From Candidatus Krumholzibacteriia bacterium (GTDB lineage: Bacteria > Krumholzibacteriota > Krumholzibacteriia > Krumholzibacteriales > Krumholzibacteriaceae), in contig CAWIIQ010000001.1 of assembly GCA_963836185.1 (NCBI GenBank), positions 2,163,309 to 2,227,308 of the forward strand: DNA of 64,000 nucleotides, written 5' to 3'. Below, piece after piece: positions 5,498 through 56,769 of the stretch (position 1 is its first letter; every line of letters begins with the position of its first letter). The position numbers and the translations under genes were made by a program. The notes beneath the pieces were generated by a model. The model was not told the DNA's origin. It did no database searches and saw only the letters and a list, made by a program, of their open reading frames with translations.

Positions 5498-6991
5498 CTA
5501 ATCCTTTAACGTCACGACTTTCGCGTAACCGATCTGACGAAGATCGAGAAGATCCAGCCTCGTCGCCACGGCCTCCTCCTTCGTCCGGAACTCTCCGACG
5601 TAGACCCTGTACCATTTCTGCCCGTTGACCTCAGTCTCAAGAACGATCGAGTCGTATCCGTTCTTCTCGAGATAGTCCGTCTCCGTACCGGCCCTGCTCA
5701 TCTCCCTGAAAGAAGCTACATGGACCGAATAGTGCGAACCTTCCGGCGCGGGCGTGACGGTACCGGGTTTTGAGACTGGCTGAGTCACGGCGGGTTCTGT
5801 ATCACCTCCGCCGGTCACGGCTTCGTCCGTCTTCTCTTCAACCGGTTTCTCGACCGTTTCCCCGGCAGGCCCGGGTTCCGTGACAGTCTCGACACTGTCT
5901 TCTTCCGCGCCGGTGACGGCAGCGCCATCATCCTGCCCGCGGTCCTTTTTCTCCTGGACATCACGCTGCTTCTGCACGAGCTCCGCGGTCCTGCTTTCAC
6001 CTTCCTTGTTGCTTATCGACTTGTGGATCTTGAACCACCAGACAAGGAATATTACGACGACGACAACAACGACCGAAGTGACGACTCTCGGAAGGCTCAT
6101 CCCGCCGCCTCTATGTTTTCCGTCGCTGTCGAGGTCGGCTGTCTTTTCTATCGCGCCCGCTTCATACCGCTCCTCGCCTTTTTCCTCATCTCCGGCCCCT
6201 TCTTCCCCGGACCCGTCATCGATGCGGACAGGCGGCATGAACGACCCTTCCCCCGGGGAACCCGAGGCATCCTCTCCGAAACAGACAAGATCGGCAGGAG
6301 GAAGATCTGCGCCCAGGTCTCCGAGGTTCTTCTGAAGCTGGCCCTCGGGCATCTCCTCTAGCCTGCACGAAAGGAAAATAGCGTCTGCGAGCGACGCGAG
6401 CGGATTGACCGCCCCGTCATCGGTATAGAGAGTCGAGCAATATATGATAACGTCATGGCTGCGGCTGAGAAAATCTCTCACTTTTGTGAATTCCTTCTTC
6501 GCGAAGGGGATCGTGCGTGAGACGGGGAATGAACCGGGGCCTACCACGGTCACGCCGTCGATACCAGTCGGCCGGGCGATCGTTTTAAGCGAACTTCCGT
6601 AGAGCAGCAGGTCCAGGAACCCCTGATCCTCCGTGTTCTCCACAAGGCCGCTGAGCCCCGGCGAGAGAAAATCGAAGTCGACGATCAGGACATCCCTGCC
6701 GTGCTTCGCGAGGATATGAGCGATCTGCAGAACGGCGAAGTCCCTCGCCAGCCTGTTCTCCCCGACAGACATCGCCAGGATGGAACGGTTTCCTTCCTCC
6801 GTGAATCTTCCCTCGATCCTCGCACCGAGTTCTATGAACCGGTCCAGTTCACGAGCCGATGAAAAATCTCCCGATGACATGAACGCCCTGATGCTCTCCT
6901 CGCCAAGCAGGATCGAGAACCCGCCTTCGACGTGATCGCCCTTTCGTCCTTCGTCGGGCATTCCGCGTTCTTCATCGCCCATGTGGATCAC
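5498..6991 (-). CDS. membrane protein: degenerate ParA/MinD-like N-terminal domain, one TM helix, C-terminal SPOR domain
   Basis: N-terminal region resembles a P-loop ParA/MinD fold but lacks a canonical Walker A (SILAMSVGENRLARDFAVLQ...VLIVDFD); acidic linker; TM helix VVTSVVVVVVVIFLVWWF; C-terminal SPOR-like sequence YSVHVASFREMSRAGTETDYLEKNGYDSIVLETEVNGQKWYRVYVGEF. Start overlaps selA stop by 4 nt. Confidence 0.7.
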   Translation of the reverse strand: MIHMGDEERGMPDEGRKGDHVEGGFSILLGEESIRAFMSSGDFSSARELDRFIELGARIEGRFTEEGNRSILAMSVGENRLARDFAVLQIAHILAKHGRDVLIVDFDFLSPGLSGLVENTEDQGFLDLLLYGSSLKTIARPTGIDGVTVVGPGSFPVSRTIPFAKKEFTKVRDFLSRSHDVIIYCSTLYTDDGAVNPLASLADAIFLSCRLEEMPEGQLQKNLGDLGADLPPADLVCFGEDASGSPGEGSFMPPVRIDDGSGEEGAGDEEKGEERYEAGAIEKTADLDSDGKHRGGGMSLPRVVTSVVVVVVVIFLVWWFKIHKSISNKEGESRTAELVQKQRDVQEKKDRGQDDGAAVTGAEEDSVETVTEPGPAGETVEKPVEEKTDEAVTGGGDTEPAVTQPVSKPGTVTPAPEGSHYSVHVASFREMSRAGTETDYLEKNGYDSIVLETEVNGQKWYRVYVGEFRTKEEAVATRLDLLDLRQIGYAKVVTLKD

Positions 6992-8406
6992 TCCTTCTCT
7001 TTCACATCATTCATCGCCGAAGCGAGACTTTCGATAAGCATATCTTCCTGATCGGAGGGTACCGTTCTGAGGTCCACGAATACGGAGTCACCCCGTACCC
7101 TCGCCAGCACCGGCGGATCGAGCCTTCTCAATCCGCGCTCGAGCCGCTGCGGCCCGCCGGTTGTGAGATTAATCCGCAAAAGCACCGTCCGCAAGGGATT
7201 AATAGGAAAGCTTCCCCCGCCGATCGATGATTCCCCTTCTAATACCTCGATCCCGAACCCTTCAGGCGTCATCTTTTCGAGTTTCTCCGCCGCCCGGCGC
7301 GTACGTCCCTCAAGCCCGCTCAGGTCCTCGAGTATCATCCCGAGGGCCGGGATCCGTTCTATCTCTCCGTTCCAGTAGTGGACGAGCACCTGCTCGAGCC
7401 CCGCAAGCGTCATCTTGTCGATGCGAAGCGCCCTCGACAGATGGTTACCGCGCATCCTGCCGATCATGCCCGCCTCCCCGAGGAGTATCCCCGCCTGCGG
7501 GCCGCCGAGTACCTTGTCGCCGCTGAACGAAACGATATCGACTCCCGTGTCGAGCAGGGGAAGGAGGCTCTCCTCTCCTTCGAATCCCTCATTCTCGACG
7601 GGATAGAGGATACCGCTCCCCTGATCGTACATCACGGGGATATTTCTTTTCCGCCCCAGCTCCGCCAGGGCGGCGACCGGTACCTCGTCTGTATATCCGA
7701 CTACCTTGTAATTGCTCGTATGCACCTTGAGGAGAAGAGTGGCTCCCTCGTCTATCGCCCTCTCGTAATCCCCGAGGTTGGTCCTGTTCGTCGTCCCCAC
7801 CTCGATGACCCTCCCCGCGGCCCGGGTAAGGATCTCGGGAAGCCTGAAGCTCCCTCCTATCTCGACGAGTTCTCCTCGCGAGACGGCGACCGCACCTTCA
7901 CGGGCGAATGTATCGACGGCAAGAAGGACGGCGGCCGCGTTATTGTTCACGACCAGGGCCCCTTCGCACCCCGCGATCGCGCGGAGCAGGGCGGTGACCC
8001 TTCTCGAACGGCTCGCTCTCGAACCTGTCGCGACATCCATCTCCAGGTCTGTGTACCCGGAAGCGGCAGTCAGTACCGCCGATGCCGTCGCCGAATCGAG
8101 CACTGCCCTGCCGAGGTTGGTATGGAGGATGACTCCCGTCGCGTTGATCACGCGGCGCTGCCTGTCAGCGACCAGGGATCCGATCTCCTTCGCGGCCGCG
8201 GCGACGATACTCTCAAGGATAAGGCCGGCATCCTCGACAGCCTCTGCCCGGCCGCTGACGATCCCCTGCCTGTACGATTCTATCCTGTCCCTTACGATAC
8301 GGGTTATGCCGCGGCGCGAGACAAAGTTGACCCGCGCGGCGATCCTCTCGTCTTCGAGAACCCGTTCGACCGAGGGTAAATTCCTCAGAGAGGCATTCCT
8401 GTCCAT
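6988..8406 (-). CDS. selA: L-seryl-tRNA(Sec) selenium transferase SelA
   Basis: SelA-like throughout, including the PLP-lysine region FSGDKVLGGPQAG; start placed at internal ATG (MDRNASLRNLPSVERVL) that aligns with SelA N-termini; the longest ORF extends to 8451. Confidence 0.88.
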   Translation of the reverse strand: MDRNASLRNLPSVERVLEDERIAARVNFVSRRGITRIVRDRIESYRQGIVSGRAEAVEDAGLILESIVAAAAKEIGSLVADRQRRVINATGVILHTNLGRAVLDSATASAVLTAASGYTDLEMDVATGSRASRSRRVTALLRAIAGCEGALVVNNNAAAVLLAVDTFAREGAVAVSRGELVEIGGSFRLPEILTRAAGRVIEVGTTNRTNLGDYERAIDEGATLLLKVHTSNYKVVGYTDEVPVAALAELGRKRNIPVMYDQGSGILYPVENEGFEGEESLLPLLDTGVDIVSFSGDKVLGGPQAGILLGEAGMIGRMRGNHLSRALRIDKMTLAGLEQVLVHYWNGEIERIPALGMILEDLSGLEGRTRRAAEKLEKMTPEGFGIEVLEGESSIGGGSFPINPLRTVLLRINLTTGGPQRLERGLRRLDPPVLARVRGDSVFVDLRTVPSDQEDMLIESLASAMNDVKEKE

Positions 8407-8646
8407 TCCACCCCTGCCCGTTCTCCTGTTAATCCTGCCATTTTCTACCATATGTTGTGGTGCCCGTCAACTGTTTTAACAATATATTGTAAGCGGGTTT
8501 GTCGGTTTTCTTTACATCTCTTTGCAGGGGAGGTACGGGCCGTCTGGAGGACCTTCCCTGGGCGCGGCGAAATTTGCCGCTTGATGAATGAGGGGACTAT
8601 CTGATACACAGCAGATGTAACGAGTTACGGACCCGGGGAGGAACTG

Positions 8647-42434: not shown

Positions 42435-44301
42435 TCAGTCCAGGAGCTCCGCGTCCAGGCTCTTCATGATCCGGTCCAGTGCCGGGCTTTCGGTTTTTGC
42501 GGCTCCGGCTTTCTTTTTAGCGGCGCGGGGGCCCTTTTTCCCGGGCTTCGCTCCGGCAACCTGCCTGTCTGCCGGCTCAGGACCCTCTTCTGCCCCTTCC
42601 GGCTCTTTGCCGCCCGGACGCGGTTTTGTCCGCGCGTCTATCTCCATCTTTGCCTGGTTGTCGGGACTGCCCACTTTGATATCGACCGTTTCACATGTCT
42701 CCACGGTAAATTTTCTTCCATAGAACTTTTCGAGATGATCCTCTATCAGCCGCCTGTTCTTCGCGTCTCTTATCATCGCCATGGCGAACCTGTTCTGCGG
42801 CGAAAAGGAGAGGATCAGGTTCCCATCCTCGATACCGGCGACCTCCGCCGACATCAGCCATATACCGACGGTGAGCTTCGCTTCCCTGACCTGCGCGAGA
42901 AACCGCTCCCACTCATCCCTGCCACCGAGAGCTTCAAGAAGGGGATTCTCCCTGACCGGTATCTCGGGGGTCCCGGATGGCCCTGCCGCCGGTTCTTCCG
43001 CCGGGGATGCCCCGGCCGCGGGCGAGTCGGACGGCGCGGCAGCGTCGACCATTGCCGACGACATCGCCGGCCCGGATCCTTCCGCTGCTCCCGGCCTTTC
43101 AGCCTGTCCCCGCCTGGCGGCTCCGCTGCCGTTCGCCGCGCTCCCTGATACCGCGGATGCGCCACCCTCTCCGGACTCGAGCCTGCTGATAAGTTCGCCT
43201 ATCTCCACCGCCGATTCCCAGGATGCGGCTTCCGCCACGGCTGCTTCAATATGATATCGCGGATTGCTCGTACCCTTTAGCTCACGGTGCGCCCTCGACA
43301 TCGAGCGGAAAATAAACAGCAGGTCCTCTATCTCGAACTTCTCCGCGATCGCGGACAGTTCCTCTATCTCGCCCGAAGTGAGGTCGAGCCAGTCGGTCCG
43401 GCCTGCCGATACCGAGATGACCAGCAGATTCCGTATCCCTTCGATGAAGCCGATGAAGAACTCTTCGAGATCCATGCCGGAAGCGGTCACCCGGTCCACT
43501 ACCGAAAGCGCCTCGTTCCTGTCACGGCGGCTCACCGCGTCGAGCAGTCCGGAGACGATCTGTGAATCGACCAGTCCCAGGACCTTCCGGACGGTATCGA
43601 GGTCGATCTTTTCTTCGGCGGCCGAAATACACTGGTCCAGCAGTGATTCCGCGTCGCGCATCGAACCGTCGGCCCTTCTGCATATCAATGTCAGCGCTTC
43701 AGCGATCGTACTTTATCTTCTCGGAATCGCATATCCTTTTGAGCTGCCCGGAGAGTTCGGACAGTTCGAGCCTCTTGAAATTGAATCTCTGGCAGCGCGA
43801 CAGGATCGTAGCGGGGACCTTGTGCGGCTCTGTCGTCGCGAATATCAGGTAGACATGTCCCGGGGGTTCCTCGAGAGTCTTGAGCAGGGCATTGAAAGCC
43901 TGCTGAGTGAGCATGTGGACCTCGTCGATGATATAGATCTTCGAGCTGGACTGCGAGGGGGCGTACCCGATCTTCTCCCTCAGGTCCCTTATCTCATCGA
44001 TCCCCCTGTTGGATGCACCGTCGATCTCTATCATGTCGAGATGGTTGCCGCTGTTTACGGAGACGCATGAGGAGCACTTGTTGCATGGCTCGCCGTTGTC
44101 GGGTTCCTCGCAGTTGATGATCTTCGCGAGCAGCCGAGCCGTCGTGGTCTTGCCGCAACCGCGCGGTCCAGAAAAGAGATAGGCATGCGCCAGCCTGCCC
44201 TTCTCGTAGGCCTTCTGGAGTGTGGACGTGACATGGTCCTGGCCGACTACCTCGGCGAAGGTCCCGGGTCTCCATTTTCTGGCAAGCACGAGATAAGACA
44301 T
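42435..44301 (-). CDS. dnaX: DNA polymerase III subunit gamma/tau, interrupted by a 1-nt frame change near 43695
   Basis: N-terminal AAA+ module (GPRGCGKTTTARLLA, zinc module CNKCSSC, SRCQRF) in ORF 43699..44301; continuation (IAEALTLICRRADGSMRDAESLLDQ...) in ORF 42435..43688; reading is restored by inserting one A in tacgat^tcgctg. Confidence 0.9.
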
Positions 44302-44379
44302 GAGCGCAGTCCCCCGGTAAGAAGTTCAGGAGACCGTGCACCCGGAATCGAAAGGCACCCCCGGCTCTTGCGTCAGGGT

Positions 44380-44495
44380 TAGCTCCTGTCAGGATACCCG
44401 CGGCACATAAGAATGACTGCGTACCGCTGCTACCTTCCGGTCCTGACGGGGTTGGCAGGTTCTCATTGCGCGGGTCCTGGCACTCAACACCACTT
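44380..44495 (-). ncRNA. ffs: signal recognition particle RNA (small, 4.5S type); boundaries approximate
   Basis: Minus strand GUCAGGACCGGAAGGUAGCAGC (44447..44426) matches the conserved domain IV motif GUCAGGUCCGGAAGGAAGCAGCC; location immediately upstream of dnaX is the conserved ffs-dnaX-ybaB-recR synteny. Confidence 0.75.
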
Positions 44496-44611
44496 CCCGC
44501 CGCCGATCGCTCGGAGACAACGCTCCCTCAACCGGGAATTCGGCCCCGCTATAGCGGATTGCGGGTGCAGGGCACCGCTAATTCCCCGCCTAGCACGATC
44601 TCTGATAGAAA

Positions 44612-44687
44612 TGGTGGAGATGATCGGATTCGAACCGACGACCCCCTCGTTGCGAACGAGGTGCTCTCCCAGCTGAGCTACATCCCC
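44612..44687 (-). tRNA. tRNA-Ala (anticodon CGC)
   Basis: GGGGAUGUAGCUCAGCUGGGAGAGCACCUCGUUCGCAACGAGGGGGUCGUCGGUUCGAAUCCGAUCAUCUCCACCA; G3:U70 identity pair; anticodon loop UUCGCAA. Confidence 0.9.
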
Positions 44688-44740: not shown

Positions 44741-44830
44741 TGGCGGAGAGAGAGGGATTCGAACCCTCGGAGGAGTTGCCCCCTCAACGGTTTTCGAGAC
44801 CGTCCCGTTCAACCGCTCCGGCATCTCTCC
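44741..44830 (-). tRNA. tRNA-Ser (anticodon CGA)
   Basis: Type II tRNA with long variable arm; anticodon loop CUCGAAA; T-loop GGUUCGAAUCC; encoded CCA. Confidence 0.88.
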
Positions 44831-46369: not shown

Positions 46370-46723
46370 CTTCCACTCCGGTTTCCAGTTGAAGGACTAG
46401 AATATCGCTCTGAAAGATACCAGTGTGATTATCGCAGTGTCAATCCGTATCAGGGCAAGACGTACAGGAATGAACTTCAGTATCAGGATCACCGGATCTA
46501 TCTATTACTGTACAGTTGCGCCTCCAGTCAAACTGCTCCATAAGATAATTTGGAAATCTTTCTTAATTTCTATATTGACAACATTTTGGAGGTATTTTTC
46601 GACCCGTCCGGACAGGCCTGCGGGATACCCGCCAGAGCGATACAGGCGGCCCGGGAGACCCGCCGGGGGAACAGGCCATCATCTCTTTTTCGCCTCCCAC
46701 AGGAAAACGCCTCTACGTTCTCC

Positions 46724-46753
46724 TGTCACGTCCCCGGGATCCCGTGTTATAAT
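46724..46753 (+). promoter_or_regulatory. candidate promoter (TGTCAC-N18-TATAAT with extended -10 TGT) upstream of the HNH gene
   Basis: cctGTCACgtccccgggatcccgTGTTATAATg about 40 nt upstream of ATG 46791, which has a GGAGG ribosome-binding site. Confidence 0.45.
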
Positions 46754-46790
46754 GTCTGTGCGTGGTGGGTGGACAATGGGAGGTGGAAGT

Positions 46791-47969
46791 ATGAACGACT
46801 CAATCCGGCTCGATTCCCTGGGCACTCTTTCAGACAACAGGCTGATACGACAGCTCGAATCCCTGAGGGGGAAGGAACGCATGCTCCTCGCTGCGGTCCT
46901 TCGGCACCTTCTGGAGATGGAACGTCGAAAGCTCTACCTGCCAAGGGGATATTCGTCTCTGTTTGAATTCTGCACTCAGCACCTGAAATATTCGAGATCC
47001 GCCGCAGGGAGAAGGATCGCAGCTGCCAGGACTATCGGGAAGTTTTCTTCTCTCGAGGGATATCTCCTCAACGGCGAGATCAATCTCTATTCCCTGTCCC
47101 TCATCTCGGGGATCCTGACCAGGGAGAATTTCAGGGAGATCGTCCAGGGGATCAGGAACAGGCCGACCCGTGAGGTCGAGGCCTTCGCGGCTGCGTACAG
47201 GCCCGCCCGCGTCCTGAAGGACCGAGTCAAGCCGGTCTGCGTGATGGTGCCCGCTGCCGCAGACGGAAAAACCGCCCGTCCGGGAAGGACCTCTTCCAGT
47301 CCCGGCACCGGTTCCAGTCACGGCACCGCCGGGTTCGACCCCACTCCCGGTGCCGGGAGTGCCGGATCTACTCCCGGCGCCGGGAGTGGAAAATTCCCCG
47401 CACCGGGATCGGGAAGACCGGGGCCCGAGATTTTCGAACATGTAAGGATCAGCAGGAAGTTCAAGTTCGAATTTGCCGTAAACAACGAGTTCAAGAAAAA
47501 GTTCGACCGCATGAAGGCCCTGCTCTCTAGCAGATATCCCCAGGGTATCAGTTTCGAGGCTCTCTTCATGTTGCTGATGGACGAATACATCGAACGTCAC
47601 AGCCCTGAGGGAAGAGCCGCCAGGCGGGAAAAACGACTGGCAGCGGGGACCAGCTGCGGGACCGGATCGTCAAACGCCGTCAATGGATCGGGCGGCGGCG
47701 ACAGATCCGGCCGGAGAACGCGCAACATACCGGCAAAGGTCCGCGACGAGGTCTTTCTACGCGACGGAGGGAGATGCACCTTCAAAGGCTCAGATGGCAA
47801 AAGATGTAACTCTAAATGGAACCTGCAGATAGACCATATCGTACCTTTTGCGCTCGGCGGGGACGATTCACCCGGGAACCTCCGGCTGCTGTGCGGGAAA
47901 CACAACCGGCTGGAAGCGGAGCGCGTCTTTGGAAGCCGGCACATGGAAAGGTTTAAAAAACGGGAATAA
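46791..47969 (+). CDS. HNH endonuclease with DUF222-like N-terminal domain and Gly/Pro/Ser-rich linker
   Basis: C-terminal HNH motif (CTFKGSDGKRCNSKWNLQIDHIVPFALGGDDSPGNLRLLCGKHN); N-terminal region resembles DUF222; start at ATG 46791 with GGAGG upstream (the upstream in-frame extension is low-complexity). Confidence 0.75.
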   Translation: MNDSIRLDSLGTLSDNRLIRQLESLRGKERMLLAAVLRHLLEMERRKLYLPRGYSSLFEFCTQHLKYSRSAAGRRIAAARTIGKFSSLEGYLLNGEINLYSLSLISGILTRENFREIVQGIRNRPTREVEAFAAAYRPARVLKDRVKPVCVMVPAAADGKTARPGRTSSSPGTGSSHGTAGFDPTPGAGSAGSTPGAGSGKFPAPGSGRPGPEIFEHVRISRKFKFEFAVNNEFKKKFDRMKALLSSRYPQGISFEALFMLLMDEYIERHSPEGRAARREKRLAAGTSCGTGSSNAVNGSGGGDRSGRRTRNIPAKVRDEVFLRDGGRCTFKGSDGKRCNSKWNLQIDHIVPFALGGDDSPGNLRLLCGKHNRLEAERVFGSRHMERFKKRE

Positions 47970-48114
47970 GGCAGGATCATCGAGCGCCATCTGATAACAT
48001 ACTTAAATAATATTGATTACTGTCTTGATTATCAGGTACGCGTGGTATAGCATCATGGCGTCTGAGGTCGCCCCGCCGGCAATACCACAGTGCCCTATGC
48101 TCTGGAGGTCTCAC

Positions 48115-49416
48115 ATGCACCGTATCATCCCGGTCCTGGCCATAACACTAGTCGTACTCTCAGGATGCGGAGACGATTCTACGAATCCCGGTGAAAACGG
48201 CGGAGGTTCGACTGTTACCGGTGAATATGTCGTATTCGCCTGGAACGATCTCGGGATGCACTGCCTTAACGACACATACGATCAGGCAGTGATCCTTCCC
48301 CCCTACAACAATGTCTGGGCCCAGGTGATCGAACGGGGCGACCCGCCCCGGATAGTCACGGCCGGCCTTACGGTCGACTTCAGGCTGGACAACAACACAT
48401 ACTCTTACGGCAAGGAGGAGTACGGGGGATTCTGGGATAATGCTGACGCTCTTTTCCGGTTCGTCCCCGGATTCACAGCCCCCGCCAATAATATCGGCCT
48501 GACGGGAACGGGGCTCTCCGGCCATATGGAAAATGCCTCCGACCATTTTGTCGCCGAAGGGATACCGGTCGTGCCCGTCAGCGATTCATCCGATTACAGC
48601 GCGTACCAGACGGGGATAATCACGGTGAAGGACAACGAGGGGAAGACTGTCGCATCGACGAGGGCGACTGTACCGGTCTCGGACGAGATCACCTGTTCGA
48701 AGTGCCATACCGCCGACGCGTGGACCGATGTCATCGCCGACCATGACCGCCTTCACATGACGAGCCTAGCCGATTCGGTACCCTTCCTCTGCGCTTCCTG
48801 CCATGGAAGCCCCGCGCTGGGCACGGTCGGTACCGGCAGCGCCGGCATATACCTCTCGGAAGCTATTCACGGGGCCCACGCTTCCCGGGAGGCCACATGC
48901 TACGATTGCCACCCGGGGATAAACACGAAGTGCATGAGAAGCGAAAAACACACGGCGGCAGACGGCAATTGTGAGACCTGCCACGGTGACCTGGCCGAGA
49001 TGGCTTCATCGATCGTAGAAGGCCGGGTACCCTGGGCCAACGAGCCGTCATGCGGATCGTGCCATACCGGTGTGCCGGGGATGGAGCCGTCGGGCACCCT
49101 CTTCCGCAACGCCATGGGACACGGTTCTGTCTACTGCGCTGCCTGCCATAACTCGCCTCACGCAATGTACCCCTCGACGCTGATGGCCGACAACTACCAG
49201 CCTATCGAGTACCAGGGCGGAGCAAAGACGATCGGAAGCTGCGGCGTGTGTCATGAGGATTCCAGAGGCGACGTCGACGATATACACGAATTCGAGGAAA
49301 AGCACGGCACCGCCGATCCCGACAGGATCATCAACTGCCATGTGTGCCATACAGTGGTCAGGGACAATACGATGAGCTGGCCACACCAGTGGAAGTGGAA
49401 CAACAGCAACGACTGA
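48115..49416 (+). CDS. octaheme c-type cytochrome lipoprotein
   Basis: Signal peptide plus lipobox (VVLSGCG); eight CxxCH motifs (CSKCH, CASCH, CYDCH, CETCH, CGSCH, CAACH, CGVCH, CHVCH); heme-free N-terminal domain of about 190 aa. Confidence 0.8.
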   Translation: MHRIIPVLAITLVVLSGCGDDSTNPGENGGGSTVTGEYVVFAWNDLGMHCLNDTYDQAVILPPYNNVWAQVIERGDPPRIVTAGLTVDFRLDNNTYSYGKEEYGGFWDNADALFRFVPGFTAPANNIGLTGTGLSGHMENASDHFVAEGIPVVPVSDSSDYSAYQTGIITVKDNEGKTVASTRATVPVSDEITCSKCHTADAWTDVIADHDRLHMTSLADSVPFLCASCHGSPALGTVGTGSAGIYLSEAIHGAHASREATCYDCHPGINTKCMRSEKHTAADGNCETCHGDLAEMASSIVEGRVPWANEPSCGSCHTGVPGMEPSGTLFRNAMGHGSVYCAACHNSPHAMYPSTLMADNYQPIEYQGGAKTIGSCGVCHEDSRGDVDDIHEFEEKHGTADPDRIINCHVCHTVVRDNTMSWPHQWKWNNSND

Positions 49417-49440: not shown

Positions 49441-49480
49441 AAAAAGGGACCGCTCCTGTGAGCGGTCCCTTTCATTTGTC
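49441..49480. terminator. bidirectional rho-independent terminator between convergent cytochrome and porB genes
   Basis: aaaaaGGGACCGCTCctgtgAGCGGTCCCtttcatttg: 10-bp GC-rich stem flanked by an A-run and a T-run. Confidence 0.65.
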
Positions 49481-49504: not shown

Positions 49505-50410
49505 CTATTCCATCCCGGGGATGGCCGCCATCATCTTTTCCTTGGCGAGCAGCCTCTGCCATTTTCTCTCGACATCCTTCTCGATCCCGTCGAGTTCCTC
49601 GTCGGTCAGGTGCCTGAAGCGCCCCTGCGGCTTGAGGTATTCGCGTACCGATGTCGGCTCGAAGTCCTTCCAGACCTCGAGCTTCTCGCCGTACTCGGTG
49701 ATCTCGAGGATCGGGAAAACACGCGATGTGACGGCCCTTCTCGCGCTCTGGATCGAGAGCTCGGGAGCGAGCTTCCAGCCTGTCGGGCATGGCGCGAATA
49801 TATGGATGTACCTCGTTCCCTTCATCTCCTTCGCCTTGCGGAACTTGTTGATCACGTCCTCGGGCCATGCGACCGAACAGGTTGCGATGTAGGGGATCGA
49901 GTGAGCAGCCATGATATCGATCATGTTCTTCTTCGGCTCTCTCTTGTAGTTATCGACCGGCGTTGTGGTGGTCCATGCCCCGACAGGTGTCGAGGATGAG
50001 CGCTGGATACCGGTGTTCATGTACGCCTCGTTGTCGTAGCAGACGTAGATGATGTCTTCGTTACGCTCGGCGGCGCCGGAGAGGGCCTGAAGACCGATGT
50101 CGTACGTGCCTCCATCGCCCGCCCAGGCCATCACGGTCGTCTCGCTGTCGCCCCTCATCTCGAGCCCGGCCTTGAGACCGGCGGCCACGACCGCGGCCGT
50201 CTCGAACGCCGTATGGAATATCGGCAGGTTGACGGCCGAGTGGGGAAACGTGCCGTCGATCACTGCCCAGCAGCATGCCGGGATGGTGAGCGCGGTCTTC
50301 GGACCGAGCGCCTTGAGGGCAAATCTCATAGCCTGAGTAGCTCCGCATCCCTGGCAGGCGAGATGCCCGGAGCCCATCAGCTCTTCCATCGGAATACGCG
50401 GCGCTTTCAT
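49505..50410 (-). CDS. porB: 2-oxoacid (pyruvate):ferredoxin oxidoreductase beta subunit (TPP-binding)
   Basis: Cys ligands for the [4Fe-4S] cluster (CQGCG...PACCW) and the TPP-binding GDG region (AWAGDGGTYDIG). Confidence 0.85.
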   Translation of the reverse strand: MKAPRIPMEELMGSGHLACQGCGATQAMRFALKALGPKTALTIPACCWAVIDGTFPHSAVNLPIFHTAFETAAVVAAGLKAGLEMRGDSETTVMAWAGDGGTYDIGLQALSGAAERNEDIIYVCYDNEAYMNTGIQRSSSTPVGAWTTTTPVDNYKREPKKNMIDIMAAHSIPYIATCSVAWPEDVINKFRKAKEMKGTRYIHIFAPCPTGWKLAPELSIQSARRAVTSRVFPILEITEYGEKLEVWKDFEPTSVREYLKPQGRFRHLTDEELDGIEKDVERKWQRLLAKEKMMAAIPGME

Positions 50411-51559
50411 ATCTTCACTCCTATCCAGTTGATATATCTCTCCGGATCCTTGTCGCCGATCGCCTTGTCGGCGATCTCGCGGACGACCTTCGGCGTGATG
50501 TCGCGGCCACCGAGGCCCGCGATATAGCCGAGGATCGGGATGTCGGTTCGGCCGTAAAGAGCACTCTTGATCTCCTGGTAGAAGATACCGTGCGCTCCGA
50601 ACGAGATGTTACGGTCGATCACGGCGACCTTCTTAGCCTTCGAGAGGACCGCGAAAACCTCTTCGATCGGGAAGGGCCTGAAGACCCTTATCTTCAGCGA
50701 CCCGGCCTTGATCCCCTCGTCGCGGAGATCATCGATAACGACCCTCGTCGTAGAGGCCACGGTGCCCGAGGTCACGAATATGATCTCGGCATCGTCGCAG
50801 CGATAGGGCTCGATGAGCCCGTATCCGCGGCCGAACATCTCTTTGAATTCATTGTCGACCCTCTTGATCACCTCGAGGCCCCTGTCCATCGCTTCCTGGA
50901 TCATGTAGCGCAGCTCCATGTAGTGGTCGGGACCCGCCAGGTTGCCGAACGAATGCTGATCGGCCGTATCGATCTTGATATCGGGCTCGTACGGCGGCAG
51001 AAATTTCCTGACCTCTTCCTTCTCGATGATATCTACGATCTCGTATGTATGAGAGAGGAAGAAGGCGTCCATGACGAGCATCACGGGCATCTGGAGTTCC
51101 TCGGCTATCTTGAAGGCCTGGGGAACTGTATCCTGTGTCTCCTGGTTAGACTCGCAGTATATCTGAAGCCAGCCGACGTCTCTCTGGGAAAGGGAATCGT
51201 TCTGGTCGGTCCAGATCGACCACGGAGGCCCGACGGCCCTGTTGACATTAGCCAGCACGATCGGGAGCCTCGCGCCCACGGCCCAGTGAAGCATCTCGTG
51301 CATGAGGAGCAGTCCCTGGGACGATGTCGCCGTGAAGGTCCTCGATCCGGCGGCCGACGCTCCGACGCAGGCTGCCATCGCGCTGTGTTCCGATTCCACC
51401 TTGATGAACTTCGCGTCCAGTCTCACCGTTCGCACACATCTCGGACAGGAGCTCCACGATATGGGTCTGCGGCGTGATCGGATAGGCCGAGATGACCTTG
51501 GCCTCAGAAGCTTTTACGCCGTAACTGACGGCGTGGTTTCCCATGATGACCTTCTTCAT
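50407..51559 (-). CDS. porA: 2-oxoacid (pyruvate):ferredoxin oxidoreductase alpha subunit, interrupted by a frameshift near 51440
   Basis: N-terminus MKKVIMGNHAVSYGVKASEAKVISAYPITPQTHIVELLSEMCANGE in ORF 51248..51598; remainder (LDAKFIKVESEHSAMAACVGASAAGSRTFTATSSQGL...) in ORF 50407..51435; one extra base at gagActggac. Confidence 0.85.
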
Positions 51560-53235
51560 TTTCCCTCCTCCCGTATCGATATGGCGTTGCGCGGGCACTC
51601 GAACGCGCAGACGAGACAGCCTTTGCAGTAATCGTAATCGAATTCATATTCGTCCTCGTGCCGCTTGATGGCGACGTCGGGACAGTATACCCAGCAGTTA
51701 TCGCAATAATTGCACACACCGCACGAGAAGCACCGGTCCGCCTCAGCGGCGAGCAGCTCCGGTGTGAACCCCGTCTTTATCTCCGAGAATCCAGCCTTCG
51801 CTTCGGATGTCGAGATACCCGGAACGAGGTTCCTCTTCGAGTGGGTAAAATAATCCGTGTTCATATCCTCTATGCCGACAGTCTTCGGCTCCTCGATCTC
51901 CGGCTCTGCCTGACCGGCAAGCATTCGGCCGATCTTCCCGGCTGCCTTGCGTCCGGCTGCGATGGCTTCGACCACACTAGCCGCTCCGGTTACTACATCG
52001 CCACCGGCGAAGATCTTCGGATTGGAAGTATCGCCTGTCTCGCCGCCTGTCTTTATAAGGTTCCATTCAGTCTCGACCGAAGATTCGATCCCTTCGAGAT
52101 CGGCCTGTTCACCGATCGCGGTGAAGAGCCTGTCCACCTCGAGCTCTATCGTCTCGCCCTCGACCGGTACCGGCCTGCGCCTTCCCGAATCGTCGGGCTC
52201 GCCGAGCTCCATCTTCTGGAAGATACCCCGAACGAGCTTTCCGCTCTCGATAACGAGTTCCTTCGGAGCGGCGAGGAAATGGAACGCCACTCCCTCTTTC
52301 TCCGCTTCCTCTATCTCCTCGGCGATCGCCGGCATCTCGTTTCTAGTACGGCGGTATACGACCGTGACCTCACTGCCTGACCGGAGTGCGCACCTGGCGA
52401 CATCCATCGCGGTGTTCCCGCCTCCGACCACGACTACCTTCGCGCCCGGATCGACCTTCTCGCCGCTGTTGACCCTGCGGAGGAAATCGAGGCCGGGCTC
52501 GATCCCTTCCTTGTCCTCGCCATCCACTCCGAGGCCGCGGCTGCTCATCAGTCCCAGGCCTAGGAAAACGGCGTCGTAATCCTTCTCAAGCTGATCGAAA
52601 GTGATATCTGTCCCGACCTTGACACCGGCCTTGACCTCGATCGGCCCCGAGTCGAGGATCTGTGAGACGACCCTGTCGAGGAGTTCATTGGGGAGCCTGT
52701 ACTCGGGTATTCCCCACCTGAGAACGCCGCCGAGAGCCTTGTCCCTCTCGAACAGAGTCACGGCGTATCCCTGCCTGGCGAGATAGAAGGCGCACGATAG
52801 CCCGGCGGGGCCGCTTCCTACGACTGCCACCTTTTCTTTCTTTCCCGCCTTCGTCTTTTCCATCCAGCTGCCGTTCTCGAGACCAAGGTCCCCGAGTGAC
52901 CTCTCGATAGCGTTGATGTTTACTGCCTCATCGTAATCCTTCCGTGTGCACTTCGTCATACACGGATGAAAACAGACCCTGCCCGTCACCGCGGGCATCG
53001 GGTTGCTGTCGATGATCGTCTTCCATGCCTCCTCGTACTTTCCCAGCGTAACGAGATAGATGTACTGCTGTATATTCTCGTTAGTGGGACATCCGAGGAT
53101 GCACGGTGACGTCTTGAAATCGTAGAGAGGCCTTACGTTCCGCCACGATCCGGTGAGGTTCCACATCATGGAACCTGTCGTCATCGGACGGATCGGCATC
53201 TCTTTGTAACTCTCGAATTCGATTTTCTTGACCAT
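51556..53235 (-). CDS. GltD-like NAD(P)H-dependent FAD oxidoreductase fused to a C-terminal 2x[4Fe-4S] ferredoxin (PorD-like)
   Basis: N-terminal Fe-S region and GltD-like FAD/NAD(P) Rossmann motifs (VAVVGSGPAGL, VVVVGGGNTAMD); C-terminus CFSCGVCNYCDNCWVYCP...CKGCLVCAFECP; occupies the slot where porD normally lies between porG and porA. Confidence 0.8.
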   Translation of the reverse strand: MVKKIEFESYKEMPIRPMTTGSMMWNLTGSWRNVRPLYDFKTSPCILGCPTNENIQQYIYLVTLGKYEEAWKTIIDSNPMPAVTGRVCFHPCMTKCTRKDYDEAVNINAIERSLGDLGLENGSWMEKTKAGKKEKVAVVGSGPAGLSCAFYLARQGYAVTLFERDKALGGVLRWGIPEYRLPNELLDRVVSQILDSGPIEVKAGVKVGTDITFDQLEKDYDAVFLGLGLMSSRGLGVDGEDKEGIEPGLDFLRRVNSGEKVDPGAKVVVVGGGNTAMDVARCALRSGSEVTVVYRRTRNEMPAIAEEIEEAEKEGVAFHFLAAPKELVIESGKLVRGIFQKMELGEPDDSGRRRPVPVEGETIELEVDRLFTAIGEQADLEGIESSVETEWNLIKTGGETGDTSNPKIFAGGDVVTGAASVVEAIAAGRKAAGKIGRMLAGQAEPEIEEPKTVGIEDMNTDYFTHSKRNLVPGISTSEAKAGFSEIKTGFTPELLAAEADRCFSCGVCNYCDNCWVYCPDVAIKRHEDEYEFDYDYCKGCLVCAFECPRNAISIREEGK

Positions 53236-53294
53236 TCAGCCTCCAGCCTTATCTGATCCCTCTTCGGGACCGGGCCTGTTGTACGGCCCCGGAT

Positions 53295-53855
53295 CTATTT
53301 TTTGGAGATGATCTTCACCCCGTTGAAGGCGTCCTCTGCCGCCTGCATATTCGCTTCCTTCTTGAACGGAACGAAGCCCTCGATCGCCTGTTTGACCGCG
53401 TCGAGTCCGACCAGGCCGGTCGCTCCGGCGAACGCGCCGATGATCGACGTGTTCACGATCGGAGCTGCGAGCGATCCGAGCTTGTGACTCAGCGCTATCT
53501 TAGCCGCGTCGACCGTCGCGATGCTGAACTTCTCGAGCAGTTCATCGTCATCGCACTCCATGTTCGTGTTAATCACGATCCAGCCGCCGTCCTTCAGCCC
53601 GTCTGTTATATTGACGGTCTTCAGAAGCACGCGGTCGAGGACAATGAGATGATCGGGCTCGTAGATCTGACACCTCTCGCGGATCTCACCCTCTGAGGCG
53701 CGGGTGAATGCCATCACGGGAGCGCCCCTGCGCTCGACACCGAAGGCCGGAAACGCCTGGACAAACTTCCCTTCGTGGAAGAAAGCATCTGCCAGGATCT
53801 CCGAAGCGATCACCGAGCCCTGGCCACCCCGGCCATGGGTCCTGATTTCCAGCAT
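53295..53855 (-). CDS. porG: 2-oxoacid (pyruvate):ferredoxin oxidoreductase gamma subunit
   Basis: MLEIRTHGRGGQGSVIASEILADAFFHEGKFVQAFPAFGVERRGAPV is the canonical PorG N-terminus. Confidence 0.88.
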   Translation of the reverse strand: MLEIRTHGRGGQGSVIASEILADAFFHEGKFVQAFPAFGVERRGAPVMAFTRASEGEIRERCQIYEPDHLIVLDRVLLKTVNITDGLKDGGWIVINTNMECDDDELLEKFSIATVDAAKIALSHKLGSLAAPIVNTSIIGAFAGATGLVGLDAVKQAIEGFVPFKKEANMQAAEDAFNGVKIISKK

Positions 53856-55586: not shown

Positions 55587-56769
55587 TCAGCTCTCTCCCT
55601 TTATGGGGGACAGCTCGCGAAGCCTTTTGACTACTTCGGGGAAGGTATCCAGGAATGCGTCGACATCCTCGTCTGTATTGCAGATGCCAAGGCTGATCCT
55701 GAGCGCGCCCTGCGCCTCGACGGGATCAAGGCCCATCGCCTTGAGGACATGGCTCGGTTCGGGGTCCCCGGTCGCGCAGGCGCTGCCGCTCGAAAGGGCA
55801 AAGCCGAGCATGCTGAGATTGAGTGACATCGCCTCGCCTTCTATGCCTGGAACTGTGACGTTACATGTATTCGGAACCCGCGGAGCTCCATCGCCGTTTA
55901 TATGCACATTGGGCACTTTCTCGAGTATTCCCTCCTGGAGCCTGTCGCGCAGGGCGCATAACCTCGCCATCTCCTCCTCGAGATTCTCCTCGGAGAGCCT
56001 GCACGCCTCGCCGAATCCTACGATTGCGGGGATATTCTCCGTGCCGGGCCTGAGGCCTTCTTCCTGGTGGCCGCCAGTGTATACCGGCTCCAGCGGCGTG
56101 CCGCGCCTGACGTACAGTGCCCCTACACCCTTCGGCCCATAGAACTTGTGGGCCGAAATCGAGAGCAGATCGACTATGGGATCGCCAACATCGACCGGTA
56201 TCTTCCCCATGCCCTGGACGGCATCAACGTGAAGGATGATCCCACGTTCCTTTACGATCCTCGATATCTCCTGCAGCGGCTGGATGACGCCGGTCTCGTT
56301 ATTCGATGACCATTATACTGGCCAGGATGGTGCGGTCGGTCACGGCCGCTTCGAGATCAGCGGCATCGACGGAACCGTCCCTCCTGCAAGGAAGGTAAGT
56401 GACGGTCACGCCTTCTTTTTCCAGAGCTTCACATGTCCTCAGGACCGCCGGGTGCTCTATCGCGGATGTGATGAGGTGCGGCTCGGGGACCTTTTCTCGA
56501 AGCGCCTTTACGACTCCCCTTATCGCCATGTTGTCCGACTCGGTACCGCCCGATGTAAATATGACCTCGGAAGGTTCAGCTCCTATGAAGGAGGCGACGT
56601 GACCACGGGCCTCATCGATGACGCCGCGGTTCTCCTGCCCGAAAAAATGCAGGCTGCTCGCATTGCCGAATCTCGTATGCAGGAAAGGAAGCATCGCCTC
56701 GATTACTTCCTCCCGCATATAGGTGGTGGCGTTATGGTCGAAATAGACCCTGCGCTTCGAATCGTTCAT
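55587..56769 (-). CDS. iscS: cysteine desulfurase (IscS/NifS family), interrupted by a frameshift near 56298
   Basis: N-terminal part (VYFDHNATT...FTSGGTESDN...ASIMV) in ORF 56299..56826; C-terminal part (NNETGVIQP...HVDAVQGMGKIPVDVGD...SAHKFYGPKG...SSGSACA) continues upstream of the annotated ORF 55587..56210; one extra base at gtcAtcgaat. Confidence 0.85.

Follow-up and report, generated by a model that had tools for sequence, protein, structure and literature searches.

An octaheme c-type cytochrome lipoprotein of a Krumholzibacteriia bacterium, a possibly surface-exposed distant relative of MtrC-type cytochromes

Introduction

The outer-surface cytochromes MtrC, MtrF, OmcA and UndA of Shewanella are lipoproteins of ~650-870 amino acids (aa) with 10-11 hemes, built from two beta-barrels and two pentaheme domains, in which a heme-free beta domain leads directly into a heme domain. 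Outside the Proteobacteria, OcwA of Thermincola potens is a stand-alone cell-surface multiheme cytochrome with nine hemes. Hemes are packed into a compact wire in the periplasmic decahemes MtrA and DmsE, and triheme units of the c7 type, as in PpcA and the dodecaheme GSU1996, make up soluble periplasmic carriers. Here, we describe an octaheme c-type cytochrome lipoprotein of 433 aa encoded at 48115-49416 on the forward strand of a 64-kb stretch of DNA (64,000 nucleotides (nt) of contig CAWIIQ010000001.1 from a Candidatus Krumholzibacteriia bacterium; referred to below as the window). It combines one beta-sandwich with eight hemes, and we put at about one half the probability that it is a surface-exposed, lipid-tethered, eight-heme electron-transfer module and a compact relative of the MtrC type.

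Bacteroidales, Krumholzibacteria and related groups from the environment abound in sediments, wastewater and anaerobic digesters, and it is often suspected that they pass electrons to or from minerals, humic substances or partner cells; to our knowledge, no molecular route for such an exchange has been described in these groups. Our search of the literature on this protein family, on its LGMHC motif and on the multiheme cytochromes of Krumholzibacteria, Prolixibacteraceae, DMER64 and Melioribacter yielded no description of the cytochrome, and for these taxa it returned general statements only, to the effect that multiheme cytochromes are encoded. From our comparisons, the family appears to be large, unnamed and structurally unsolved, joining a new beta-sandwich to an MtrC-like heme unit and three further hemes.

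Results

The cytochrome gene is real and intact, as judged from its open reading frame (ORF) and translation (433 codons and a stop codon) and from full-length homologues at 52-85% identity. In a mechanical list of ORFs, the frame starts further upstream, at a TTG (48013); the ATG at 48115 is the better start, because a Shine-Dalgarno-like GGAGG, found by direct reading of the same strand (48104-48108), precedes it with a 6-nt spacer, because a typical signal peptide begins there, and because the starts of the homologues agree. In a 39-sequence alignment of full-length homologues (A1), this ATG is aligned with the starts of all 38 other proteins, and an identical 433-aa protein on an independent public contig is called from the same codon. 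A wider alignment held 78 sequences (A2).

The C-terminal part of the protein, residues 191-433 (48685-49413, forward strand), forms an octaheme domain that is delimited by the positions and spacing of its motifs, by matches to the Pfam families PF22113 and PF14522, and by profile alignment to MtrF. CxxCH motifs start at residues 194, 226, 262, 286, 313, 341, 376 and 408, in keeping with an earlier note on this DNA that had counted eight in ~430 residues, and all eight are invariant in A1. In 20,000 shuffles of the protein at its own composition (19 Cys, 23 His), the mean number of such motifs was 0.04 and the maximum was 2. The density of ~30 residues per heme is as in heme wires, and an AlphaFold2 model computed from the 78-sequence alignment (mean predicted local distance difference test score (pLDDT) 89.5, predicted template modelling score (pTM) 0.87) is mostly helical with coil from residue 191 to the C-terminus. 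Each of the eight motifs is CxxCH, and no CxxCK, CxxxCH, CxxxxCH or extended heme motif was found in the protein. Nine histidines outside the motifs are also invariant in A1 (residues 49, 210, 252, 255, 279, 336, 349, 397 and 424). Because these nine residues serve eight hemes, no heme needs an open coordination site, and all eight hemes apparently have two axial ligands. The seven-heme relatives in A2 have seven non-motif histidines for seven hemes; these more distant proteins lack heme 8 together with His279 and His397, and heme 8 appears to be specific to the octaheme clade.

Pfam assigned the protein to generic multiheme families only, namely PF22113 (MtrC/MtrF domain II/IV; residues 191-348, 37.5 bits against a gathering cutoff of 30), PF14522 (Cytochrome_C7; residues 311-381, E 1.3e-11) and c3_2. 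The best NCBIfam model, TIGR03508 (DmsE/MtrA), aligned its positions 4-202 with residues 193-415 at 41 bits (E 1.5e-10) against a cutoff of 192.2. A search of PDB sequences with the single protein gave no match, and a PDB search with a profile of the 78-sequence family gave weak matches to MtrF (E 1.2e-6), OcwA (6i5b; E 2e-6), MtrA (6r2q_A; E 2.5e-6), UndA (E 6e-6), GSU1996 (E 2.3e-5), the subunit of an archaeal cytochrome nanowire (8e5g_A; E 9.1e-5) and MtrC (E 1.7e-4). The alignment to MtrF residues 178-308 is collinear, running from the last strand of the beta domain into heme 1 and on through five CxxCH motifs (hemes 1-5) and three distal histidines, and it therefore speaks for a genuine, though remote, homology with the MtrC family over the domain I-II junction and the pentaheme unit.

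The likeness to MtrC, MtrF, OmcA and UndA thus extends to the lipid anchor, to the heme-free beta domain placed directly before the heme domain and to a PF22113 score above the cutoff; unlike these proteins, the octaheme protein has the additional hemes 6-8 after the pentaheme unit, its gene has no mtrA/mtrB-type neighbour, and its family is far more conserved across phyla. With OcwA it shares the stand-alone gene, whereas the match itself consists of four short, motif-centred fragments that are not collinear and has no counterpart in the fold search, and OcwA has neither an N-terminal beta-sandwich nor a lipobox-type family signature. From MtrA and DmsE, whose compact wires have the same heme density, it differs in having eight hemes instead of ten, a lipid anchor and a beta-sandwich, in having no porin partner, and in its TIGR03508 score far below the cutoff. 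Hemes 5-7 match PF14522, and the PDB matches include 3ov0, 1rwj and 3oue; here, the c7-like part is a single module, whereas known c7 proteins are soluble and without a beta-sandwich.

Fold searches with the predicted model returned nothing specific, and the match to an MtrC/MtrF-type fold was not significant. For NrfA, HAO, ONR, Otr and MccA, we found no Pfam or NCBIfam family at E <=1 and no fold match; the NrfH model scored 11 bits against a cutoff of 134, and PDB profile matches to NrfA (E 1.5e-3 to 0.03) covered ~45-75 residues only. Nitrogen-oxide reduction, which the earlier note had offered as one option, finds no support here, given the lack of any NrfA, HAO, ONR or Otr signal and of CxxCK. 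Membership in a well-characterised reductase family came out negative in Pfam, NCBIfam, PDB sequence and profile, and fold searches, and assignment to any known family was rejected since the Pfam, NCBIfam and PDB searches, with the single protein or with the family profile, gave generic multiheme matches only. On this basis, the octaheme lipoprotein seems to belong to no characterised family.

The N-terminus (residues 1-18; 48115-48168, forward strand) is a lipoprotein signal peptide, MHRIIPVLAITLVVLSGC, that terminates in the lipobox L-S-G-C with Cys18 as the lipidated residue. Cys18 is invariant in A1, in line with the lipoprotein signal peptide noted earlier, and the hydrophobic N-terminus closes with a cysteine in almost all full-length homologues. 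It is followed by a flexible tether (residues 19-36; 48169-48222, forward strand) that starts with G-D-D-S, is rich in Gly, Ser, Thr and Asp, is disordered in the AlphaFold2 model (pLDDT <50 at residues 18-30) and is poorly conserved (column conservation 0.28). From the lipid cysteine onwards the sequence reads C-G-D-D-S, and the trend in the family is for Ser, Lys or Asp followed by Asp or Glu: among 96 homologues, position +2 is Ser in 41, position +3 is Lys in 41 or Asp in 18, and position +4 is Asp or Glu in 40. The published lipoprotein export signals of Bacteroidetes are SDDDD, SDDFE and K-(D/E)2, in general a polar residue or Lys with acidic residues behind it, at +3 to +5 from the lipid cysteine. 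The acidic C-G-D-D-S start resembles these signals, under a rule that was set up in Bacteroidetes, while the host belongs to the Krumholzibacteriota. The Krumholzibacteriota are members, alongside the Bacteroidota, of the Fibrobacteres-Chlorobi-Bacteroidetes (FCB) group.

Between tether and hemes lies a beta-sandwich domain (residues 37-190; 48223-48684, forward strand) for which there is no Pfam or NCBIfam family and which, by these comparisons, appears to be new and previously undescribed. The AlphaFold2 model shows a signal helix, a disordered tether, a beta-sandwich at residues 38-189 (pLDDT 94-98) and the heme domain, in this order. The protein is heme-free through residue 193, which agrees with the heme-free N-terminal part of ~190 aa noted earlier. 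Mean column conservation is 0.73 in the heme-free domain and 0.73 in the heme domain as well. The segment with the highest conservation is W43-N-D-L-G-M48-H49-C50-L-N52 (48241-48270, forward strand). W43, N44, L46, G47, M48, H49, C50, L51 and N52 are invariant in A1, D45 is present in at least 90% of the sequences, and in A2 M48 is found in 77 and H49 in 73 of the 78 sequences. Among 20-residue windows of the protein, the top-conserved one is residues 41-60 (score 0.89), which contains this heme-free WNDLGMHC loop.

Beyond the lipid cysteine and the heme motifs, only two cysteines come into consideration: Cys50 in the loop and Cys273 in the heme domain (codon 48931-48933, forward strand), which lies between hemes 3 and 4 within a conserved C273-x-R275-S276-x-x-H279. 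They covary perfectly in A2, both being present in 67 of the 78 sequences and both missing from the remaining 11; Arg275 is present in 77. The simplest reading of this pattern is a disulfide that would staple the loop onto the heme domain; alternatively, the two cysteines may form a joint redox or metal site.

The family is large and broadly distributed. A word-indexed search returned >3,500 sequence clusters, of which the best 120 are full-length proteins of ~430 aa at 52-83% identity; the members looked up by cluster are annotated, where at all, only as 'hypothetical', 'multiheme c-type cytochrome' or 'PKD domain-containing protein', and come from metagenome-assembled genomes. A pattern scan of one genome per species found relatives in 353 GTDB species. 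The best 80 of these 353 belong mostly to Bacteroidales and other Bacteroidota (Prolixibacteraceae, Rikenellaceae, Lentimicrobiaceae, Cytophagales) and also include Krumholzibacteriota, Eisenbacteria, Gemmatimonadales, Nitrospirae and Holophagaceae, again all as metagenome-assembled genomes. Identity between phyla is 52-85%. An exhaustive HMMER search of representatives at 50% identity found 308 clusters below 1e-30, many of them larger proteins of 500-1,250 aa that share the core (query residues ~35-385). Among the larger relatives, 30 of 59 also match PF22113 (best E 3e-20), and nine of the 69 that we scanned have the C-terminal sorting domain of type IX secretion (T9SS). Other modules in the larger relatives are SLH, PASTA, cohesin/dockerin, Ig, PKD, fn3, BACON, FG-GAP, CARDB and DUF11. 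These fusion modules act outside the cytoplasmic membrane, most of them at the cell surface.

In the window, no other CxxCH-bearing ORF was found among the ORFs of at least 60 aa. The absence of adjacent partner cytochrome or porin-cytochrome genes, reported previously, holds on closer inspection: upstream lies an HNH endonuclease gene, and downstream lie the convergent genes of a 2-oxoacid:ferredoxin oxidoreductase. Isolation of the gene is not peculiar to this genome. The neighbours are mutually unrelated in three Bacteroidota and Krumholzibacteriota contigs, a seven-heme relative also stands alone, and only two of 84 related loci have a second ORF with at least two CxxCH motifs within ~8 kb. 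All-against-all clustering of the ORFs of the 84 loci led us to reject a conserved gene neighbourhood; it gave lineage-specific synteny and no universal partner. In ~20 Bacteroidales loci, for example, the gene lies alongside genes for lactamase_B, PhzF, dCMP deaminase and succinate dehydrogenase.

Three further contexts are of note. In two Bacteroidales-type loci (L035, 7929-10993; L075, 8001-13175), a paralogue of 476-491 aa adjoins or lies near the octaheme gene; it has five CxxCH motifs only but retains the WNDLGMHC loop, and this suggests that paralogues of different function occur within a single genome. At another locus, with cluster members that are named Marinimicrobia (L088, 17438-23177), a relative fused to PKD and the T9SS sorting domain lies amid genes for T9SS cargo (Peptidase_C25, PAD_porph), and 7-9 kb away are two genes, with a MerR regulator gene between them, in which multiheme c domains are joined to a Ni_hydr_CYTB membrane cytochrome b. 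The latter resemble a CbcL-type quinol oxidoreductase and can be taken as a hint, not as a linkage. Finally, in nine Bacteroidales loci (e.g., L005, 9491-15592), the cytochrome gene is directly followed by an HMBD heavy-metal-binding gene and a Cus/Czc-type resistance-nodulation-division (RND) efflux cluster, an adjacency that may reflect synteny within the lineage or a connection with metal handling.

Discussion

Taken together, these observations fit a model in which the lipid anchor and the flexible tether of ~20 residues would hold the cytochrome on the outer membrane's (OM) outer face, and its eight closely spaced hemes would form a short wire there. The wire would give respiratory electrons to, or take them from, extracellular or high-molecular-weight partners, candidates being Fe(III) and Mn(IV) minerals, humic quinones and other cells. 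In this model, the beta-sandwich would be packed against the heme domain and tied to it via the Cys50-Cys273 pair, and one heme is probably either capped or given an axial ligand by the invariant G-M-H-C loop. What we infer in this model is where the protein sits, that it transfers electrons rather than acts as a catalyst, that the two cysteines form a disulfide, and what its partners are. We favor a surface module because hexacoordination is possible for all hemes, because the detectable homology is to electron-transfer proteins only, because relatives are fused to surface modules, and because the residues after the lipid cysteine are acidic. The earlier note had left the choice between periplasmic and outer-surface electron transfer; electron transfer is supported, and the similarity to MtrF and MtrC, the acidic residues and the surface fusions narrow its location toward the outer surface. 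For the family as a whole, a role in moving electrons at the surface of bacteria from sediments and digesters is probable.

Several observations weigh against a surface module. The gene has no porin-cytochrome, periplasmic carrier or quinol dehydrogenase gene near it in the window, and none of these is seen near it in 82 of the 84 related loci either; because no conduit, carrier or quinol dehydrogenase gene lies nearby, the route by which electrons would reach a surface protein is unexplained. The Pfam scan detected no T9SS C-terminal sorting domain (Por_Secre_tail) in the window protein, and the export-signal rule comes from Bacteroidetes, not from Krumholzibacteriota. Moreover, the conservation of 52-85% across phyla, peaking in the heme-free Met-His-Cys loop near Arg275, would be more typical of an enzyme or of a protein with a specific docking partner. 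Known outer-surface cytochromes are generally regarded as fast-diverging (cf. PMC12977616). Given the unseen electron route and the unusual pattern of conservation, we retain a periplasmic carrier and a reductase as rival explanations.

The carrier would face the periplasm from the inner leaflet of the OM or from the inner membrane, and between a quinol dehydrogenase and periplasmic reductases it would relay electrons or store them, a tethered counterpart in function to the soluble periplasmic multiheme carriers. A lipoprotein signal and flexible tether with no secretion domain of its own, histidines sufficient for all-hexacoordinate hemes and a gene that stands alone in all lineages examined, as befits a general-purpose carrier, are all compatible with this idea, as is the weak similarity to the periplasmic MtrA and DmsE, seen with both TIGR03508 and 6r2q_A; the TIGR03508 score of 41 is, however, far under the cutoff of 192. 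We nevertheless consider a periplasmic carrier unlikely, because fusions of the core with modules acting outside the OM or at the cell wall (cohesin/dockerin, SLH, BACON and the T9SS sorting domain) recur, because the acidic residues after the lipid cysteine fit a surface-export pattern, and because a generic carrier would need no N-terminal domain conserved as strongly as its heme domain. At the other extreme, the protein might build up, as its subunit, an extracellular cytochrome polymer or a homo-oligomeric array on the surface, with the hemes of neighbouring subunits stacked. The weak profile match to the archaeal nanowire subunit and the links of this multiheme family to surface domains would agree with such an arrangement. 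We regard it as highly improbable, given that a cell-bound monomer or small oligomer is favored by the lipid anchor and tether, that enough histidines lie within one chain for no ligand from a neighbouring subunit to be required, and that there was no fold match to filaments of the OmcS, OmcE or OmcZ type.

A different role for the conserved loop is conceivable, namely that the protein is a new extracytoplasmic reductase in which the G47-M48-H49-C50 loop, Cys273 and Arg275 would form a catalytic or redox centre at one heme, fed by the other seven, with polysulfide, thiosulfate, tetrathionate or another small anion as candidate substrate. The placement of the conservation peak in a heme-free loop, the perfect covariation of the two cysteines, the near-invariance of Arg275 and Met48 and the enzyme-like identity of >50% between phyla would all be accommodated by an active site, and the octaheme clade next to a five-CxxCH paralogue at the same loci suggests specialised functions. 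A precedent is the recently described MccSep of Geobacter, a tetrameric polysulfide reductase with five hemes, an N-terminal heme cap and a C-terminal Ig-like stem, whose active site, at one heme, pairs a heme-ligating cysteine with selenocysteine (PMC13510729). MccSep is thus an example of a heme-thiolate/chalcogen active site in a multiheme protein that has an Ig-like domain. This is analogy and not homology: both proteins combine a heme domain with a beta-sandwich (Ig-like in MccSep), whereas the order of the domains is reversed, eight hemes stand against five, the profile match (E 0.37) is not significant and no fold match was found. Against a reductase also stand the lack of any detectable relation to NrfA, HAO, Otr, MccA or MccSep in Pfam, NCBIfam, PDB profile and fold searches, the lack of a variant heme motif, and a histidine count that permits bis-His ligation of every heme; for a covarying pair of cysteines in an exported protein, the simplest account is a structural disulfide, and 11 of the 78 relatives lack both cysteines and keep the rest of the core. 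We therefore judge a reductase to be improbable. It is tempting to speculate further that the Met-His-Cys loop, Cys273 and Arg275 make up a redox centre on one heme of an eight-heme wire, so that the family would be a new extracytoplasmic class, either of heme-thiol enzymes or of redox-gated cytochromes; we consider this improbable. If such a class did exist, it would provide Bacteroidales, Krumholzibacteria and other anaerobes with a stand-alone reductase, e.g., for polysulfide or another abundant sediment oxidant, that needs no dedicated partner genes.

The family is one kind of multiheme protein, easy to recognise, very widespread and conserved to an unusual degree; it is unnamed and structurally unsolved, no Pfam model covers its N-terminal domain, and its genes are not clustered with conduits of the Shewanella or Geobacter type in the loci examined. 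Should the protein act as the surface electron outlet of these lineages, it would be a useful marker gene and would raise the question of how electrons pass across their OM; should the Met-His-Cys loop be catalytic instead, a new enzyme of respiration would be at hand. Under either reading, its breadth, conservation, orphan context and conserved non-heme loop make it a well-defined and tractable target.

Genomic surroundings of the cytochrome gene

The gene lies in an ordinary chromosomal setting of recR, dnaX, signal recognition particle (SRP) RNA, two tRNAs, two small ORFs without family matches and the HNH gene; the remaining genes of the window encode SMC, SelA, cell-wall and polysaccharide functions, AlaRS and RecA, the last with named relatives (82-89% identity) that are Krumholzibacteria. 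With the cytochrome gene positioned beyond two tRNAs and an HNH gene, a genomic island or mobile element was considered and ruled out by synteny with L006, the locus of the closest cytochrome homologue (84% identity). L006 is syntenic from recR and dnaX through the oxidoreductase genes, and synteny across this whole region indicates that the gene is not on a recent island.

Directly upstream on the same strand, the HNH endonuclease ORF (46425-47969, forward strand; 514 aa) has a C-terminal HNH motif and a long low-complexity middle rich in Gly, Pro, Ser and Thr, and its true start is probably well inside the ORF. The HNH gene adjoins the cytochrome gene in L006 and is located elsewhere in the related locus L007. 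Downstream and convergent with the cytochrome gene is a 2-oxoacid:ferredoxin oxidoreductase cluster of four genes (49505-53855, reverse strand), whose products are a thiamine pyrophosphate (TPP)-binding beta subunit, an alpha subunit, a 559-aa NAD(P)H-flavin/4Fe-4S protein of the glutamate-synthase small-subunit type and a gamma subunit; the insertion of the flavoprotein within such a cluster is unusual. A hairpin with a 13-bp stem (49443-49472), identified in a scan for terminator-like structures by match to the consensus only, lies between these convergent genes and is a probable terminator that would close the transcription unit.

Further upstream, a large bacterial SRP RNA (44334-44598, reverse strand; 191 bits) and tRNAs at 44615-44687 and 44744-44830 lie directly upstream of dnaX. 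The dnaX gene itself (42435-44301, reverse strand) is in two frames, one encoding the ATPase domain (43699-44301) and the other the lid, domain III and the C-terminus (42435-43688). The break falls at about residue 200 in the ATPase region, unlike the programmed tau/gamma frameshift, and because dnaX of L006 is an intact single ORF of 598 aa (L006 2796-4592), a frameshift or assembly indel is likely in the window. Assembly indels are also hinted at by an Aminotran_5 ORF (55587-56210, reverse strand; 207 aa) that covers profile positions 181-371 only and is probably truncated or frameshifted. Finally, we note that the window encodes the selenocysteine synthase SelA (6988-8451, reverse strand; E 2e-123), the presence of which indicates that the organism makes selenoproteins.

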